Positions 20,541 to 62,886 of a stretch of DNA of 64,000 bases are shown here, piece after piece. A model generated the notes under the pieces. That model worked only from the letters and a program-made list of their open reading frames with translations, had not been told where the DNA came from and ran no database searches. Position 1 is the first letter of the stretch, and each line of letters opens with the position of its first letter. The DNA is taken from the NCBI GenBank assembly GCA_963827755.1, contig CAWHCQ010000010.1:1999-65998 (forward strand). The letters are read 5' to 3'. Source of the DNA: an uncultured Gammaproteobacteria bacterium (lineage in GTDB: Bacteria; Pseudomonadota; Gammaproteobacteria; UBA9214). A program made the position numbers and the translations under genes.

Positions 20541-20825
20541 ATGAGCCGTATCGTGAATTGTGTCGTCCTCAAGCGCGAAGCCGAAGGGCTGGAATCCGTC
20601 CCGCACCCGGGATCACTGGGTGAGCGCATCTACGAGAATGTTTCCGCGGAAGGCTGGAACAAGTGGCTGGAGCGCCTGACCATGATCATCAATGAGAATG
20701 GCCTGAATACCGGCGACAAACAAAGCGTGGAGCTGATCGAAAAGCACATGGTTGGCTTTCTGTTTGGCGAAGGCGATTTCGGCTCGGTCCCGGAAGGCTT
20801 CAAACCCCCGGGCGCCAAGAAGTGA
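20541..20825 (+). CDS. yggX: oxidative damage protection protein (Fe(2+)-trafficking, YggX family)
   Basis: Start at ATG 20541 after GAGGA. MSRIVNCVVLKREAEGL...GWNKWLERLTMIINE. The stop TGA lies in the first heptamer of element E1. Confidence 0.85.
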   Translation: MSRIVNCVVLKREAEGLESVPHPGSLGERIYENVSAEGWNKWLERLTMIINENGLNTGDKQSVELIEKHMVGFLFGEGDFGSVPEGFKPPGAKK

Positions 20826-21012
20826 GAAGTGAGAAGTGAAAGTGAAGAAGTGAAGAGTAAAGAGTGATTTGTAGCGAAAGCCGGACGTCCGTTCACTTCT
20901 CACTTCTCACTTCTCACTTCTCACTTCTCACTTCTCACTTCTCACTTCTCACTTCTCACTTCTCACTTCTCACTTCTCACTTCTCACTTCTCACTTCTCA
21001 CCTCTAACTTCT
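20822..21012. repeat. heptamer-hairpin element E1: degenerate (GTGAGAA)-type arm, spacer, 15 perfect + 2 degenerate TCACTTC units
   Basis: Left arm 20822-20867. Spacer contains the palindrome CGGACGTCCG (20882-20891). Perfect TCACTTC x15 at 20893-20997, then TCACCTC and TAACTTC. Confidence 0.95.
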
Positions 21013-32567: not shown

Positions 32568-32635
32568 GCACGAAAGGACTGCAATAACAGAGTTTCCTTG
32601 ACTTGCGTGCGTCCCGCCCGTACAGTTTCCGCAGC

Positions 32636-32828
32636 TTAGTTTCAGGTGTCCCACGGACCTCCGTCCAAGGGATGAAACGGGAAGCCGGTGCGTCAACACA
32701 ATGACAAGTCCGGCGCTGCCCCCGCAACGGTAAGCGAGCATAGGTGAATCGAATATACCACTGCGCATGACGCGGGAAGGTGATTCACCGGGTACCAACC
32801 CGCTCGCAAGCCCGGAGACCGGCCTGAA
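32636..32828 (+). promoter_or_regulatory. cobalamin (B12) riboswitch preceding btuB
   Basis: Conserved blocks AACGGGAAGCCGGTG, GCTGCCCCCGCAACGGTAAG, CCACTG...GGGAAGGTG, and a B12 box AGCCCGGAGACCGGCC (32809-32824). It ends ~110 nt upstream of the receptor start. Confidence 0.85.
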
Positions 32829-32937
32829 ACCACATGCATGTATCGCGAGGGGCGATGCTGGCAGTGGAATACTTCTTCCTGTCATTGTCATTCTCCTTCT
32901 GCACTGATCAAACTTCAGCACGGGGTCGTGCTGTGGC

Positions 32938-35724: not shown

Positions 35725-36297
35725 ATGGGCAACCGGCTCTCAAAGATATACACGCGCACCGGCGATGACGGCACCACCGGCCTTGGTGACGGTTCACGCG
35801 TTGCCAAGGACGATCCGCGAGTCGAGGCCATGGGTGCGGTTGACGAACTGAACTGCGCCATCGGGGTCCTGCTTGCCCATGAACTGCCGGTAGCTGTCCA
35901 GCTTTCACTGACCGGCATCCAGCACAGGCTGTTTGATCTCGGCGGCGAACTCTGCATCCCCGATACCAGCTGCATCACGGATGAACACGTTGCAGGGCTG
36001 GAACAGTTACTCGATGAACTCAATGCAGACCTGCCGGCCCTGAAGGAATTCATCCTGCCGGGCGGCTCCGCGGCCGCGGCGGCCTGCCACCTGGCCCGTG
36101 CCATCTGCCGTCGCGCCGAACGGCGTACCCACAGCCTCGGCAAGCAGGCAGGCATCAACCCGGCTTCCCTGAAATACCTGAACCGGCTCTCCGACCTGCT
36201 GTTTGTGATGGCCCGGCACCTGAACAAACAGGCCGGTGTAGCCGATGTTTTCTGGAAGCATGAAAAGAAAGGTGAGAGAGTGAGAAGTGAGAAGTGA
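35725..36297 (+). CDS. PduO-type ATP:cob(I)alamin adenosyltransferase
   Basis: 190 aa; IYTRTGDDGTTGL, DPRVEAMGAVDELN, FILPGGS. The last residues GERVRSEK and the stop are encoded by element E3. Confidence 0.85.
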   Translation: MGNRLSKIYTRTGDDGTTGLGDGSRVAKDDPRVEAMGAVDELNCAIGVLLAHELPVAVQLSLTGIQHRLFDLGGELCIPDTSCITDEHVAGLEQLLDELNADLPALKEFILPGGSAAAAACHLARAICRRAERRTHSLGKQAGINPASLKYLNRLSDLLFVMARHLNKQAGVADVFWKHEKKGERVRSEK

Positions 36298-36489
36298 AGA
36301 GTGAAGAAGTGAAGGTGAAGAATACGGAAGAAGTGAAAAGTAAGATGCTTAAGAATGATTTTCGTGTACTTCACGTGGATTCCGTGGCTATTACTACTTC
36401 ACTCTTCACTTCTTACTTCTCACTCTTCACTTCTCTTCACTTCTCACTTCTCACTTCTCACTTCTCACTTCTCACTTCTCACTTTCTCA
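36272..36489. repeat. heptamer-hairpin element E3 with a half core (TTTTCGTGTACTTCACGTGGATTCCGTGGCTAT, 36359-36391)
   Basis: Left arm 36272-36322 (GTGAGAG/GTGAGAA/GTGAAGA units). Right arm 36393-36489, ending in 5 near-perfect TCACTTC units. Confidence 0.93.
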
Positions 36490-37409
36490 AGAATTCCGCA
36501 CAAACGTTCAACCCCGTCCAGTATCCGCGGCGTTTGCCGCACCAGCAGTTCCCGCTGGATTGCGTACAGCTGGTTTGATTTCACCGCGGACAGCTCCGGC
36601 CAGCGGCGCCACGCCTCCAGCATGCTGTTATCACCGGCATCGACAGCGGTAACGATGACATCCGGATTGGCAACGAGCACGGCCTCGATGTCGATTTGTG
36701 GCGCCAGTGCCGGCAGTGCCGCAAAGACATTGCGCCCGCCGCATAACTGCATCACGTCACTGACCAGGTGTTCACCGTTCAAGGTCATCAGCGGGTTTTC
36801 CCATACCTGGTAAAACACGCCGACTTCAGGGCGTCGTGCATAGCGACTGCGCAGCCCTTCAAGCCGCTGTTCAAATGCAGCCGCCTGTGCCCCGGCTGCC
36901 GTACCTGTGGCAGCCAGCTCGCCCAGCTTCCTGAGCGTGACCGCGATATCCTCCAGCCGGCGTGGTTCGGAGAGAAACACGGTCATCCCGAGTGACTGCA
37001 GGCGCCGCACCTGCCGATCCGGGTTGCCGCTCTGCCAGGCAACCACCAGGTCCGGCTGCAGGGCAAGTACGGCCTCCATGTCAAGGCTGCCACCGTCACT
37101 GATGCGCGGAAGCGTTTCTGCATTCGGCGGGTAGTTACTGTAGGCGGACACACCGACGATGGAACTGCCTGCACCGGCGGCAAACAGCAGTTCCGTGATG
37201 TGCGGCGACAGGCTGACGATACGCCGCGCGGGATGCTGCAGTACGACCTGCTGCCCTGCATCGTCGCTCACCCGGATCTCCGGCCACGCCGGCGTACTCG
37301 ACCAGCCGGTCATCAACAACAGGAATAGGACAGGCAAATACCATGTCCAGCCCGCATTGCTGTATAGGCAAAACTGATGCTTGAAGGATTTTTCTGAATT
37401 TAAAAACAT
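36465..37409 (-). CDS. periplasmic cobalamin/iron-chelate binding protein (BtuF-like); start uncertain
   Basis: RRIVSLSPHITELLFAAGAG, PDLVVAW, NPDVIVT are cluster-A binding-protein motifs. The C-terminal ...EKVRSEK and stop are encoded by E3. The ORF is open to 37481. Confidence 0.7.
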   Translation of the reverse strand: MFLNSEKSFKHQFCLYSNAGWTWYLPVLFLLLMTGWSSTPAWPEIRVSDDAGQQVVLQHPARRIVSLSPHITELLFAAGAGSSIVGVSAYSNYPPNAETLPRISDGGSLDMEAVLALQPDLVVAWQSGNPDRQVRRLQSLGMTVFLSEPRRLEDIAVTLRKLGELAATGTAAGAQAAAFEQRLEGLRSRYARRPEVGVFYQVWENPLMTLNGEHLVSDVMQLCGGRNVFAALPALAPQIDIEAVLVANPDVIVTAVDAGDNSMLEAWRRWPELSAVKSNQLYAIQRELLVRQTPRILDGVERLCGILEKVRSEK

Positions 37410-37656
37410 GCAGACCTGACCATTGCACGAGCCGGGATCGATGATAACGGCCTGAAAACTCCTCATCGGCGCTCCGGGCATCCTGCCTCCCGCGACACTT
37501 GTGCGTCCTTGTACATCGGCCAGTTCCCGGAGGGAGAAGGGATTCTCTTTTGCTATGACGAGTGATGTGTCATCTCCTGTGTACTATTAATATGACAAAC
37601 GGCTTTCCTGGATGCGTTATAATCCCGCGTCCCAACAGCAGACACAAGCAGGAACA

Positions 37657-49677: not shown

Positions 49678-49826
49678 AGAAGTCCTGAGAAGTGAGAAGT
49701 AAGCAAGTACACAGCCAGGTGACTGTTTCTGAATGTAATGGCCACGGAATCCACGGATGCACACTTAAAACTAAAGTCATTAACTGACTTTTCACTTCTC
49801 ACTTCTTCACTTCTGACTTCCGTGGC
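49678..49826. repeat. heptamer-hairpin element E5 (short arms) with a half core ATGGCCACGGAATCCACGGATG (49739-49760)
   Basis: Left arm CAGAAGTCCTGAGAAGTGAGAAGTAAGCAAG. Right arm TTTCACTTCTCACTTCTTCACTTCTGACTTCCGTGG. Confidence 0.85.
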
Positions 49827-49861
49827 AAAACATCTAAATGCCTTGTCAGCCTCAACCAGCC

Positions 49862-57946: not shown

Positions 57947-59204
57947 ATGAACCTGTCCGAACTTAAACTGAAACCGGCTGCCGAGCTGGTTGAAATAGCA
58001 CAACAAATGGGCGCAGAGGGTACCGCGCGCTCCAGAAAACAGGACATCATCTTTTCCATCCTCAAATCGCATGCAAAAAAAGGCGAGGATATTTTCGGCA
58101 GCGGTGTTCTGGAAATACTGCAGGACGGGTTCGGTTTCCTGCGTTCTGCAGACAGCTCCTACCTCGCGGGCCCGGATGATATTTACGTATCTCCAAGCCA
58201 GATCAGGCGTTTCAGCCTGCGTACCGGCGATACCGTGGATGGAAAGATACGGCCGCCGAAGGACAGTGAACGTTACTTTGCATTGCTCAAGGTCGATGCA
58301 ATCAACTACGAGAAACCTGAAAACGCCAAGAACAAGGTTGCCTTTGAAAACCTGACGCCGCTCCACCCCAATAAAAGACTGGTACTGGAACGCGGCAACG
58401 GCAGCACCGAAGACATTACCGCTCGCATCATTGACCTGGTCGCACCCGTGGGCACTGGGGCAACGCGGCCTGATCGTGTCGCCGCCCAAGGCCGGTAAAA
58501 CCATGCTGCTGCAGAATATCGCACAATCAATCGCATCGAATTACCCGGACGTGTACCTGATTGTGCTGCTGATCGACGAGCGTCCCGAGGAAGTCACCGA
58601 GATGTCGCGCTCGGTAAAGGGCGAAGTGGTGTCCAGCACCTTTGACGAACCGGCAAGCCGGCATGTACAGGTCGCCGAAATGGTCATCGAGAAGGCGCGC
58701 CGCCTGGTAGAACACAAGCACGACGTCGTCATCCTGCTCGACTCCATCACCCGTCTCGGCCGCGCCTACAATACCGTCGTACCTTCATCCGGCAAGGTAC
58801 TGACCGGCGGTGTCGACGCCAATGCGCTGCAACGCCCGAAACGCTTCTTCGGCGCCGCACGCAACGTCGAGGAAGGCGGCAGCCTGACCATCCTGGCAAC
58901 CGCGCTGGTCGACACCGGTTCGCGCATGGATGACGTCATCTACGAGGAGTTCAAGGGTACCGGCAACCACGAGATCCACCTGGAGCGCAGGATCGCCGAA
59001 AAACGCGTCTATCCCGCGATCAACCTCAACCGCTCCGGCACCCGCCGCGAAGAGCTGCTGACCGACCCGAAAGAGCTGCAGAAGATGTGGATACTGCGCA
59101 AGCTGCTGCACCCGATGGACGAGCTGGCCGCCATGGAATTCCTGCTCGACAAGCTGAAATCAACCAAGAGCAATGCACAGTTCTTTGAATCGATGAAGCG
59201 GTGA
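57947..59204 (+). pseudogene. rho: transcription termination factor Rho, split by a single +1 frameshift in a G4 run (probably a sequencing artefact)
   Basis: ORF 57947..58498 holds the N-terminal and RNA-binding domains ([15 protein letters not shown]...DLVAPVGTG). ORF 58431..59204 holds [22 protein letters not shown] and the rest of the ATPase. Removing one G from GGGG 58457-58460 gives an uninterrupted APVGTGQRGLIV. Confidence 0.9.
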
Positions 59205-59462
59205 GAGCGGTGAAGTAGCGTGAGAGTGAAGTGAGAAGTGAGAAGTGAAAAGTGAAGAGTGAAGAGTGAGAAGTTAAGAGTAATGAGCGACGGTCCAGTA
59301 ATAATCAGGCTCCCTAATGCCCGGTTTAATTTTTCGTGTTCTTCCGTGGATTCCGTGGCCATTAAGGTTTTATCTCTCCCTACTCGTACTTCTCAGCTTA
59401 TTCACTCTTCACCCTTATCACTTCACCTTTCACTCTCACTCCTACTTCTCACTTCTCACTTC
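59200..59462. repeat. heptamer-hairpin element E6 with a half core TTTTCGTGTTCTTCCGTGGATTCCGTGGCCAT (59331-59362)
   Basis: Left arm 59200-59287 (12-13 GTGAGAA-type units, 2 perfect). Right arm ~59380-59462 (degenerate, 2 perfect units). Confidence 0.93.
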
Positions 59463-60639: not shown

Positions 60640-61206
60640 TTAACGCAGATCAACCCCGGGTATCGCCGCCTCGGCTTCCGGCACTTCGAAGTACGTCGCC
60701 TCCCTGAACCCGAACATGCCGGCAATGATATTGGAGGGGAATTCCTGCACGCCGTTATTGAGCGCCATCACGCTGTCATTGTAAAACTGCCGGGAAAAGG
60801 AAATCTTGTTTTCTGTCGCACTCAATTCTTCCATGAGGCGGGCAACGCTCTCGTTGGCCTTCAGGTCAGGGTAGTTTTCCATCAGGGCAAACAGCTTGCC
60901 CATGGCGCCCCCGAGCAGGGTCTCCGCCGCAATCGCCTCTTCCGTACTGCCGGCAGCGACCGCCTGGTTACGCGCCTGGATGACCTTTTCCAGGGTCTCC
61001 TGCTCGTAGGACATGTAGTCCTTCACCACTTCCACCAGGTTGGGAATGAGGTCATGCCGCCGTTTCAGCTGCACATCGATCTGCCGCCAGGCATTCTTCA
61101 CCTGGTTGCGCAAGTTCACCAGGCGGTTGTAAAGCAGCATGCCCGCCAGGGGGATGCCGATGATGATTGCTACGATGATCCAGCCGAATATTTCCATTTT
61201 AAACAC
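60640..61206 (-). CDS. lemA: LemA family protein
   Basis: 188 aa; N-terminal TM; YNRLVNLRNQVKNAWRQIDVQLKRRHDLIPNLVE. Confidence 0.88.
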   Translation of the reverse strand: MFKMEIFGWIIVAIIIGIPLAGMLLYNRLVNLRNQVKNAWRQIDVQLKRRHDLIPNLVEVVKDYMSYEQETLEKVIQARNQAVAAGSTEEAIAAETLLGGAMGKLFALMENYPDLKANESVARLMEELSATENKISFSRQFYNDSVMALNNGVQEFPSNIIAGMFGFREATYFEVPEAEAAIPGVDLR

Positions 61207-61218
61207 CTCTGGTAAACA

Positions 61219-61432
61219 GGTGAAAAGTTAGAAGTGAAGAGTGAAAGTGCAAGACCATGATAGCCACGGAATCCACGAAAGAACACGGAAAAACTATTCT
61301 TAAGGTATTTATCTTTTCGTGTTCTTTCGTGGATTCCGTGGCCATTACACTTCACTTCTCACTTCTCACCTCTCACTTCTCACTTCTCACTTCTCACTTC
61401 TCACTTCTCACTTCTCACTTTTCACTTCTCCC
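61219..61432. repeat. heptamer-hairpin element E7 with the complete palindromic core (61260-61345)
   Basis: Left arm 61219-61253. Core ATAGCCACGGAATCCACGAAAGAACACGGAAAA / ~20-nt loop / TTTTCGTGTTCTTTCGTGGATTCCGTGGCCAT. Right arm of 11 TCACTTC-type units (61352-61428), 6 of them perfect in a row. Confidence 0.95.
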
Positions 61433-62705
61433 GGTCCAGGGCACGATAGCCGATATCCGTCCGATAAAAGGCATCAGGCCAGTGAATCCGCTCGACACAG
61501 GCATAGGCCCTGTCCCTTGCCTCGCGAATAGTAGCACCCAGGGCACAGACACACAGCACACGCCCGCCGCTGGTCACGATGGCGCCGTTTTGCTCCTGCG
61601 TACCGGCATGGAATACCTTGCAGTCGTCATCATCGACTGGCGGCAAACCCTCGATGACATCGCCCTTGCGGTACTGTTCCGGATAGCCGCCGGCGGCCAT
61701 GACCACGCCCAGCGCGGTACGCTCATCCCATTGCACATCGACATCGTCGAGCTCGCCGTCAACCGTGGCCAGGCAGAGTTCGACCAGGTCGGACTGCAGG
61801 CGCAGCATCACCGGCTGGGTTTCCGGGTCGCCGAAGCGGACGTTGAACTCGAGCACCTTCGGCGTGCCATCGGCCGCAATCATCAGGCCGGCATAGAGAA
61901 AACCGGTAAACTCATTGCCCTCTTCCGCCATTCCGCGGATCGTCGGCCGCATGACCTCCCGCATGACCCGGCGATGAATGTCCGCTGTTATGACCGGGGC
62001 CGGTGAGTAGGCGCCCATACCCCCGGTATTCGGACCTGCATCACCGTCATCACGCGCCTTGTGGTCCTGCGAGGTCGCCAGGGGCAGGCAGTGGGTGCCA
62101 TCCACCATCGCGATAAAGCTGGCTTCCTCGCCTTGCAGGAATTCCTCAATCACGACGCGGTGCCCGGCCTCGCCGAACACGTTCCCGCCAAGCATGTCGC
62201 TGACGGCCGCGATCGCTTCATCCACGGACTGCGCCAGGATAACGCCCTTGCCCGCGGCCAGCCCGTCGGCCTTCACCACGATCGGGGCGCCCTGCTCGCG
62301 GATATAGGCAGCGGCCTTGTCGATATCGGAAAAACTGGCGTACGCGGCCGTGGGAATCCCGTGGCGGGCGAGAAAGTCCTTGCTGAAGGACTTGGAACCT
62401 TCCAGCTGCGCGGCCGCGCGGGTGGGGCCGAAGCAGCGCAGGTCGGCGGCCCTGAAGCGGTCGACGATACCGGCGACCAGCGGAACCTCGGGGCCGACAA
62501 TGGTCAGCCCGACTTCATTGTCCGTGGCGAAGGCAAGCAGGGCATCGATGTCGGTGGCCTCGATCGCGACGTTCTCCACGCGCGGCTCCCGTGCAGTCCC
62601 GGCGTTGCCCGGCGCCACGAACACCGTATCCGCCCGCGAGGATTGCGCCGCCTTCCATGCCAGGGCGTGTTCGCGCCCGCCACTGCCGATGATAAGAATA
62701 TTCAT
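61422..62705 (-). CDS. purD: phosphoribosylamine-glycine ligase
   Basis: Start at ATG 62705 after AAGGAAAAAA (MNILIIGSGGREHALAWK). The ORF-track extension to 62786 is a translation of E8. The C-terminal ...LDREK and stop are encoded by E7. Confidence 0.93.
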   Translation of the reverse strand: MNILIIGSGGREHALAWKAAQSSRADTVFVAPGNAGTAREPRVENVAIEATDIDALLAFATDNEVGLTIVGPEVPLVAGIVDRFRAADLRCFGPTRAAAQLEGSKSFSKDFLARHGIPTAAYASFSDIDKAAAYIREQGAPIVVKADGLAAGKGVILAQSVDEAIAAVSDMLGGNVFGEAGHRVVIEEFLQGEEASFIAMVDGTHCLPLATSQDHKARDDGDAGPNTGGMGAYSPAPVITADIHRRVMREVMRPTIRGMAEEGNEFTGFLYAGLMIAADGTPKVLEFNVRFGDPETQPVMLRLQSDLVELCLATVDGELDDVDVQWDERTALGVVMAAGGYPEQYRKGDVIEGLPPVDDDDCKVFHAGTQEQNGAIVTSGGRVLCVCALGATIREARDRAYACVERIHWPDAFYRTDIGYRALDREK

Positions 62706-62726: not shown

Positions 62727-62886
62727 GTGAGAAGTGAGAAGTGATAAGTGAAGGGTGATAGAGTGAAGCGGAAGAACGCAGTACAATTACCTCTTCGATT
62801 TACCTTTTACTTCTCACTTCCGTACACTTCTCACTCTAACTTCTCACTTCTCACTTCTCACTTCTCACTTCTCACTTCTCACTTCA
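62727..62886. repeat. heptamer-hairpin element E8, lying between purH and purD
   Basis: Left arm 62727-62778 (GTGAGAA x2, GTGATAA, GTGAAGG...). Spacer with a GCGGAAGAACGC remnant. Right arm includes 6 perfect TCACTTC units (62844-62885). Confidence 0.93.

Follow-up and report, generated by a model that had tools for sequence, protein, structure and literature searches.

We analysed a stretch of 64,000 nucleotides (hereafter the window) from contig CAWHCQ010000010.1 of the uncultured Gammaproteobacteria assembly GCA_963827755.1, in which an 86-nt palindromic core (61260-61345) sits inside a larger hairpin of tandem heptamers, called E7, between purD and lemA. On balance we favour the reading that this core is a derivative, resembling a miniature inverted-repeat transposable element (MITE) and devoid of an open reading frame (ORF), of a mini-element in which the same repeats flank a gene for a GxxExxY protein, and that a nuclease would promote its movement. 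The core is read in this way because the same arms bracket GxxExxY genes and also occur without the gene many times per genome. Judged by sequence, it is very probable that the core belongs to this repeat family and derives from the ends of GxxExxY elements; that the GxxExxY protein mobilises these ends is a tentative proposal, possible rather than probable. These arms form the termini of a small unit with a gene, and copies of the unit that lack the ORF are abundant, polar, and gained or lost between relatives.

The inverted repeat of E7, which an earlier note made by a model from the letters alone had called near-perfect, is indeed 94% complementary, with arms of 32 nt each at 61260-61291 and 61314-61345 and 22 nt between them. 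Based on the inverted repeat, a hidden Markov model (HMM) of the arm and the family consensus, the left arm extends over 61260..61293 and reads ATAGCC-CACGGAAT-CCACGAAAGAA-CACGGAAAA, with three direct CACGRAA repeats behind the outer end ATAGCC (HMM E 5.9e-10). The right arm, delimited by the inverted repeat and the HMM (61311..61345; TTTTCGTGTTCTTTCGTGGATTCCGTGGCCAT; E 4.3e-10), has the outer end GGCCAT, and alignment of the palindromes places between the two an A/T-rich, asymmetric loop at 61294..61310, the ACTATTCTTAAGGTATTTATC region, whose type (..TTCTTGTAAGG..TTTAT..) is also present in related lineages. The CACGGAA motifs, previously described as two or three about 10 nt apart, number three per arm with a spacing of 9-10 nt. 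The RNA fold of the 86-nt unit reaches -50.8 kcal/mol on the plus strand and -53.1 kcal/mol on the minus strand (z about -12.4), and the whole of E7 including its heptamer arms folds as a single hairpin (-99.9 kcal/mol, z -10.6).

The surrounding host hairpin consists of a left arm of GTGARAR units, which together with the core junction occupies 61218..61259, 20 nt upstream of where lemA begins (start codon at 61197, minus strand), and of a right array of (TCACTTC) x 11 at 61346..61430 (Tandem Repeats Finder: period 7, 11.3 copies), which overlaps the purD stop codon on the minus strand, the TGA lying within a heptamer. Beyond the stem, the flanks read TACACTTC on one side and CATGGTCT on the other. 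E7 would be an intact non-autonomous copy inside a heptamer hairpin that was there before it. Its effect on the host is probably neutral, and the purD-lemA transcript gains a long hairpin. A spurious ORF of 249 aa (61257-62006, plus strand) starts from the ATG immediately ahead of the core and crosses purD in antisense; such palindromic repeats can give rise to false gene calls.

To place the core in a family, we searched 185,579 species-representative genomes for an 18-mer of the arm and obtained at least 118 loci, at least 105 of which carry genuine arms, the remaining 13 listed being chance 18-mers. The family therefore reaches far beyond the four loci at which the earlier note had seen the core. 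The arms come from at least 35 assemblies, 29 of them labelled Gammaproteobacteria or Pseudomonadota, five Gemmatimonadota and one Halobacteria, and up to 42 arms were sampled from a single metagenome-assembled genome (MAG). The 'Halobacteria archaeon' MAG, JABDRC (loci L053, L105 and L115), has contigs with gammaproteobacterial-type arms and REP-like sequences, where REP denotes repetitive extragenic palindromic elements, and this bin is probably contaminated. A BLAST search of plasmids with the 86-mer gave no match, and a scan of viral contigs gave four matches, all of them the same chance 18-mer inside coding sequence.

The consensus of 180 arms, T.TTTCCGTGTTCTTCCGTGGATTCCGTGGCYAT, repeats the unit TTCCGTG (CACGGAA) three times in direct orientation, at spacings of 10 and 9 nt, and is nearly invariant in the units and variable in the spacers, with a sharp outer edge after GGCYAT. 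Gemmatimonadota copies have 2-4 units with a period of 9, followed by C-rich or G-rich stems. Among 59 adjacent left-right pairs, 29 are palindromes of 85-87 nt and another 29 are wider, enclosing 71-384 nt of mixed sequence that often includes other repeat families. Arms are found as this palindrome of fixed length, as wider pairs or solo, and in both orientations relative to the flanking genes. In 25 of the 29 palindromes the two ends are unlike (ATGGCC versus WTAGCC), which is far above expectation for independent arms and indicates that the unit is polar and copied as a whole. Identity among loops is 0.75 for copies in one genome, 0.62 for copies in different genomes and 0.54 in shuffled comparisons. 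A small ORF starting from the ATGGCC of the arm was considered and rejected, as about 30% of arms read ATAGCC and the copy in element E3 has an in-frame stop. The protein families that recur as neighbours are ordinary paralogues (ATP-binding cassette ATPases, kinases, NtrC-type regulators and resistance-nodulation-division pumps) and orthologous housekeeping genes.

The link to a gene is direct in one Gemmatimonadota locus (L090), where the arms abut a 121-aa ORF, 7 nt before its ATG and 18 nt after its stop codon. This ORF encodes a GxxExxY protein (TIGR04256, E 1.3e-40; PF13366). We looked up ten homologues of 62-100% identity (P0001-4, P0009, P0013, P0016, P0029, P0088 and P0119), and in all ten the arm HMM matches directly 5' of the start and 3' of the stop. 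They occupy about five genomic sites in two phyla, Gemmatimonadota and Gammaproteobacteria: MacB-X-arginase, X-GH109, two further sites, and a gmd/fcl-like epimerase pair in four gammaproteobacterial MAGs. ORF-bearing and ORF-less copies occur together in the MAGs JAIVHA and JBDHHA. The full-length repeat-GxxExxY-repeat element measures about 430-490 bp and carries this one gene.

More distant homologues have repeats of their own. Seven of 40-46% identity, on IMG/VR contigs, are surrounded by inverted repeats of other tandem 9-10-nt units (CAGATGAAC, ACGGAATAA, AAATGAAWC, ACACGAAAG, CGCAGAAAA and CACGGATGAA), and in the cultured species Bacteroides finegoldii an annotated GxxExxY gene, squeezed between radA and the next gene, lies within an inverted repeat of 30 nt made of CAGAGGAC units. 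On plasmid 1 of Gemmatirosa kalamazoonensis (L233 890-962), a GxxExxY homologue is followed downstream by two 32-nt arms of CGCGGAT units, whose outer ends are turned towards each other across 9 nt; they look like two abutting elements, and a matching upstream arm was not found in this locus. Contigs with close GxxExxY homologues are mostly very short (about 0.5-2 kb), as would be expected of a gene located in repeats at which metagenome assemblies break off.

The GxxExxY protein keeps the D..ELK and GxxExxY motifs, and its AlphaFold model (predicted local distance difference test score, pLDDT, 95) has a minimal PD-(D/E)XK fold. The nearest folds are those of Cas4 SSO0001, lambda exonuclease, MGME1, splicing endonucleases and Hjc, with query-normalised TM-scores around 0.35-0.6; a sequence search of the PDB gave no solved relative. 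For PF13366 the listed function is 'Unknown', with the remark 'multiple transfers, mixed clades' (PMC3424549).

We then compared orthologous intergenic sites and found that their occupancy differs between related genomes. A MAG that is about 80% identical to the window over 57.9-64.0 kb (L017) has heptamer arms and core arms with a 101-103-nt interior at the sites orthologous to elements E6 and E7, while at the E8 orthologue core arms surround a similar interior in inverted orientation; the arm-bounded form is 160 nt long at all three sites. In the closest metagenomic relative (L123; PurD 77% identical) the purD-lemA heptamer hairpin is present without the core, and arms stand instead at purH-purD, between lemA and the M48 peptidase gene, and after the latter. 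At the rho-M48 site one relative has only arms and another only GTAG-type REP hairpins. No arms were found in 79 loci (413 kb in total) of more distant relatives, whose PurD is 66-74% identical. The earlier note's view that the elements are modular holds in this light: the core is a separate unit at the apex of the heptamer hairpin. Its suggestion of a nested insertion or a decaying MITE-like unit was likewise of the right kind, given the coreless hairpin of L123, the arm-bounded form of L017 and a decayed copy in E3. Inheritance at a fixed site is also seen: the orthologous palindromes of L008 and L087 and their flanks are 92% identical overall and differ by an indel of one 9-nt repeat unit, and this copy has descended vertically and shows no more constraint than its flanks.

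Nesting is not restricted to the heptamers. In the MAG CAVPOO (L005-L099) the 86-nt palindrome is enclosed by a further inverted repeat (CTAGTGCTTTTTCAATCTGATGATGACGGAT) and accompanied on one side by a segment of 36 additional nt, the composite measuring about 190 nt, and in L038 a palindrome of TCTGCG units lies inside a CACGGAA pair; these cases indicate that nesting at hairpin apices is recurrent. The outer arm in CAVPOO contains a Fur-box-like string, TGATAATGA. The TCTGCG units seen in L038 (ATCTGCGCGTATCTGCGTAAATCTGCGG) represent a second arm family, found nested in or beside CACGGAA arms (L038 4495-4600; flanks of L079, L085 and L101); in L228 a distant GxxExxY gene is surrounded by an inverted repeat of very similar sequence (TTCTGCGTTTTTCTGCGTATTCTGCGG). 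In L002, L010, L015, L077, L083 and L106 (for example L106 945-1100), classical REP-like hairpins, which have a GTAG guide (GTAGGGTGCGTTTTACGCACC), stand beside core arms and TCACGTC heptamers. Such mosaics of REP, arm and heptamer are sometimes tandem composite units of about 120-200 nt, resembling bacterial interspersed mosaic elements (BIMEs).

A mechanism that would fit these data can be proposed. The tandem units would be binding sites of the GxxExxY protein, several protomers possibly occupying each end, and the protein may cut at or near the outer boundary, leading to copying or movement. The route would be break repair or a hairpin or cruciform intermediate rather than DDE transposition, which would account for the missing target-site duplication; cutting on an extruded hairpin or cruciform would also explain why copies land at the apices of other palindromes. 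Copies without an ORF, E7 among them, would be mobilised in trans and would lodge in harmless places, namely gene 3' ends and the apices of palindromic repeats such as the heptamer hairpins. Elements E3, E5 and E6 of the window may represent copies decayed into solo arms.

Several observations weigh against this reading. The ten bracketed homologues amount to only about five independent insertion sites, and the 64-kb window itself has no GxxExxY gene. A clear inverted repeat was not found at four homologues of 32-38% identity, around a Treponema copy the repeat comprises just one unit (16 nt; TGTCACACGGATTCG), and on a plasmid of Fusobacteria bacterium ZRK30 (L234, CP102406.1 31377-31751) the flanks of the gene form a direct repeat of about 45 nt (..CAGATTTAATCCGTGTACCTAT..) instead of an inverted one. 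Among 58 arm pairs, one has a 4-nt direct repeat at its borders and the others 0-2 nt, that is, no target-site duplication, and no pair of empty and filled sites at high identity defines the exact ends. The arms are nearly identical across two phyla, which needs recent transfer or very strong constraint. Finally, the association could also be compatible with the GxxExxY gene being mere cargo of an element moved otherwise.

This last possibility takes its most concrete form in a REPIN-type element, that is, a REP doublet forming a hairpin and moved by a REP-associated tyrosine transposase (RAYT) of the HUH type, or in a classical DDE-moved MITE, with GxxExxY as a passenger; we consider either improbable. 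In favour of it, the doublet hairpin is reminiscent of REPINs (PMC3337134), copies are numerous and lie outside genes, several MAGs have genuine GTAG-type REPs adjoining the arms, and the missing target-site duplication fits HUH enzymes. On the other hand, the arms are triplets of direct repeats, with neither an internal palindrome nor a GTAG-type guide, and the 150 flanking ORFs (148 ordinary Pfam families) include no recurrent transposase, integrase or RAYT family; a RAYT gene was found neither there nor in about 0.9 Mb of arm-containing loci. None of the 59 adjacent arm pairs is 0.7-3 kb apart (700-3000 nt), and the repeat-unit sequence shifts with the GxxExxY lineage, which is not expected of passive cargo. 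It also seems unlikely that the arms are site arrays for a host DNA-binding protein, either nucleoid-associated or a regulator, with three helically phased CACGGAA motifs kept for a chromosomal function and palindromes serving as paired sites. The conservation is of the motif type, with CACGGAA invariant, spacers variable and a spacing of 9-10 bp; the Gemmatimonadota copies vary from 2 to 4 units, many arms are solo, target-site duplication and covariation are both lacking, and some orthologous sites are occupied in several genomes, all as such arrays would have it. However, the fixed 86-nt length, the unlike ends and the lineage-specific loops indicate that the whole unit is copied, and the same site is filled, empty or taken by another repeat family in close relatives. 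Moreover, the 79 loci of relatives at 66-74% PurD identity are entirely devoid of arms, one particular gene family is bracketed in every case tested, and the one orthologous copy compared evolves no more slowly than its flanks.

We regard as quite improbable a role at the RNA level, be it as a terminator, a messenger RNA stabiliser or an RNase III site, or through unpaired half-copies acting as GGA arrays for CsrA/RsmA proteins, a link on which the earlier note had speculated. CsrA sites have the motif A(N)GGA, with which ACGGA is compatible; the hairpins are very stable and stand at gene 3' ends, and six of the eight heptamer elements E1-E8, all of them intergenic, lie between convergent genes. 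Elements E8 and E7, however, lie within the co-directional run purH-purD-lemA, and E7 has no terminator-like site or U-tract on either strand. The search for compensatory changes that the earlier note had proposed, carried out across the 29 palindromes, gave no excess: the 32-pair stem is 93.5% paired, compared with 94.2% with shuffled partners, and all measures are at or below the shuffles. The arms pair because each matches the consensus, not through maintained pairing. All six GGA motifs of E7 lie within the -50 kcal/mol stem and are fully paired, whereas the half-copies have no fold of their own (z -0.5 to +1.4) and occur in either orientation, so that exposure of GGA there depends on the strand transcribed. 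Rfam, at gathering and E-value thresholds, gave no specific match, E7 returning only sub-threshold plant microRNA models of the generic long-hairpin kind. The conserved RNA structure is not supported, and the CsrA/RsmA link has nothing in its favour beyond the motif; a tblastn search for a CsrA gene gave no match in less than 1.5 Mb of sampled DNA, a sample size at which this result is uninformative. A strand-specific asymmetry of G-U versus A-C, taken as a candidate sign of selection on RNA, was rejected as well, being conflicting within single elements and inherited from the family.

The window contains further copies of the arm. The 15-mer CGTGGATTCCGTGGC occurs exactly five times (36374+, 49741-, 59345+, 61263- and 61328+), compared with 0.26 in shuffles, and an HMM trained only on arms of other genomes finds the same places: 59330-59362, 61311-61345, 61260-61293, 36359-36391 and 49738-49757 (E 8e-12 to 5e-6), with no match elsewhere in the window. 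The five copies all lie within heptamer elements, one each in E3, E5 and E6 and two in E7. The half-copies that the earlier note had placed in E3, in E6 and, inverted, in E5 are thereby recovered independently, and the core is missing from E1, E2 and E4, as it had described.

E3 is a decayed full copy (36311..36391), recognised by its alignment to the minus strand of E7: its left arm is degenerate, its loop persists as the remnant GCTTAAGAAT, and the arm at 36359-36391, which ends in GGCTAT, is intact (arm HMM E 4.4e-6). E6 is a solo right-type arm (59328..59362; TTTTTCGTGTTCTTCCGTGGATTCCGTGGCCAT; E 8e-12) between rho and the M48 peptidase gene; its orthologous site has arms in L017, L060 and L123 and none in L093. 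In E5 a solo left-type arm (49738..49767; ATGGCCACGGAATCCACGGATGCACAC; E 5.3e-6) is truncated after two repeats, and a possible degenerate partner terminus, TTCCGTGGCAA, lies at 49817-49829 (arm HMM E only 1.7); E5 adjoins a T2SS-F gene, as does the locus L001. For E8, the remnant suggested earlier, GCGGAAGAACGC at about 62768..62779, has no arm HMM match and aligns weakly, so that as a family member it is without statistical support and indistinguishable from chance; it is plausible only because the orthologous purH-purD site carries full arms in two relatives, L017 and L123.

The heptamer arrays (for example 20817-21012 and 61346-61430) are always oriented (GTGARAA)n..(TTCTCAC)n. The unit GTGAGAA provides a TGA in every reading frame within 21 nt, and several genes terminate at a TGA within an array or directly at its border, namely that for an Fe-trafficking protein, purD, and rho, which stops just upstream of the E6 array. 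In other MAGs the heptamer is TCACGTC or TCACTCC, its orientation relative to the core arm being unchanged. No ORFs bracketed by heptamer arrays were found in the sampled loci.

Other features of the window are of a different nature. The only Rfam match is a cobalamin riboswitch at 32627-32841 on the plus strand (RF00174, 108 bits), in a region that includes genes for a cobalamin adenosyltransferase (35725-36297) and a periplasmic binding protein (36465-37481). At 206-919, inside a long ORF (31-1725), a 378-nt unit is repeated 1.9 times at 89% identity, which points to an internal protein-domain duplication. The rho gene is apparently split (57947-59204) into overlapping frames, 57947-58498 and 58431-59204, the L017 orthologue being a single 418-aa ORF; the split is either a frameshift or an assembly error.

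Compared with known systems, the core is like a MITE with an autonomous parent in being short, non-coding and multi-copy, in sharing its terminal inverted repeats with a gene-carrying form in the same genome, and in decaying to solo ends. It differs in that target-site duplication is missing, the inverted repeats are each composed of a 7-nt motif in three direct copies, and the putatively mobile parent encodes a 121-aa protein of PD-(D/E)XK fold instead of a DDE or HUH transposase. With REPINs and the REP-RAYT system (PMC3337134, PMC3116915) it shares two inverted short repeats around a short spacer, a length of about 90 nt, extragenic location, abundance, vertical persistence at orthologous sites, and BIME-like mosaics with other repeats. 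In contrast to those, the arms are not palindromic and have no conserved GTAG-like tetranucleotide, and the accompanying gene encodes GxxExxY. In layout, the nearest counterpart is the intervening sequence in the 23S rRNA gene of Coxiella burnetii, which is 428 nt long, contains an S23p ORF, has ends that pair, and has been called selfish (PMC4990558): both are units of about 430 nt with one small ORF and pairing ends. However, S23p is not PF13366, the Coxiella sequence is located inside an rRNA helix, and its description has neither tandem-unit ends nor ORF-less high-copy derivatives.

For both the heptamer arrays and the tandem-unit arms, the TAACTGA heptamers of Beggiatoaceae, Cyanobacteria and Bacteroidetes, direct repeats found just upstream of start codons (PMC4679880), offer a parallel as tandem intergenic heptamers in Gammaproteobacteria with a patchy distribution across phyla; they differ in having no inverted arrays, and no associated gene is reported for them. 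RNAs of the CsrB/RsmZ type, which bind CsrA/RsmA, also have several A(N)GGA motifs close together on one strand, but the core motifs are paired in the complete copy, and a promoter/terminator unit, strand bias and covariation are all missing. Two further candidates were rejected. Integron attC sites do not fit, the arm consensus having no R''/R' cores (RYYYAAC..GTTRRRY) and the neighbours comprising no array or integrase, and neither do the multicopy heptanucleotide elements of the Geobacter type, as G. metallireducens uses other heptamers (GGACCGG, MTYCTGA) and the window is gammaproteobacterial. A description of the repeat family or of its association with GxxExxY was found neither in Rfam nor in the literature searched, which leaves ISfinder, Dfam and TIGRFAM/InterPro comments outside this scope and informal prior knowledge possible; literature searches with the literal sequences of the core and of the heptamers gave no relevant paper.

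A broader hypothesis, which we hold to be rather doubtful but worth stating, is that GxxExxY proteins (PF13366/TIGR04256) may be the mobilising nucleases of an unrecognised class of mini-elements. Such elements would be about 450 bp long, with one 120-aa PD-(D/E)XK nuclease, ends of 2-4 tandem 9-10-bp units co-evolving with the protein and no target-site duplication, and they would spawn ORF-less palindromes, including the core of the window, that nest in the apices of other hairpin repeats. The heptamer arrays might themselves derive from expanded ends of a related family that no longer has an ORF.

If true, this would provide the first functional context for GxxExxY/PDDEXK_3, a very widespread family of thousands of proteins whose phylogeny is full of horizontal transfers. 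The repeat family itself is abundant in uncultured Gammaproteobacteria and Gemmatimonadota of soil and sediment and is missing from Rfam, and such repeats fragment assemblies and lead annotation astray. As the arms are nearly identical across two phyla, they could mark horizontal exchange. For the organism studied here, the modular intergenic mosaics of the window would be explained as nested colonisation of hairpin apices by different palindromic elements.

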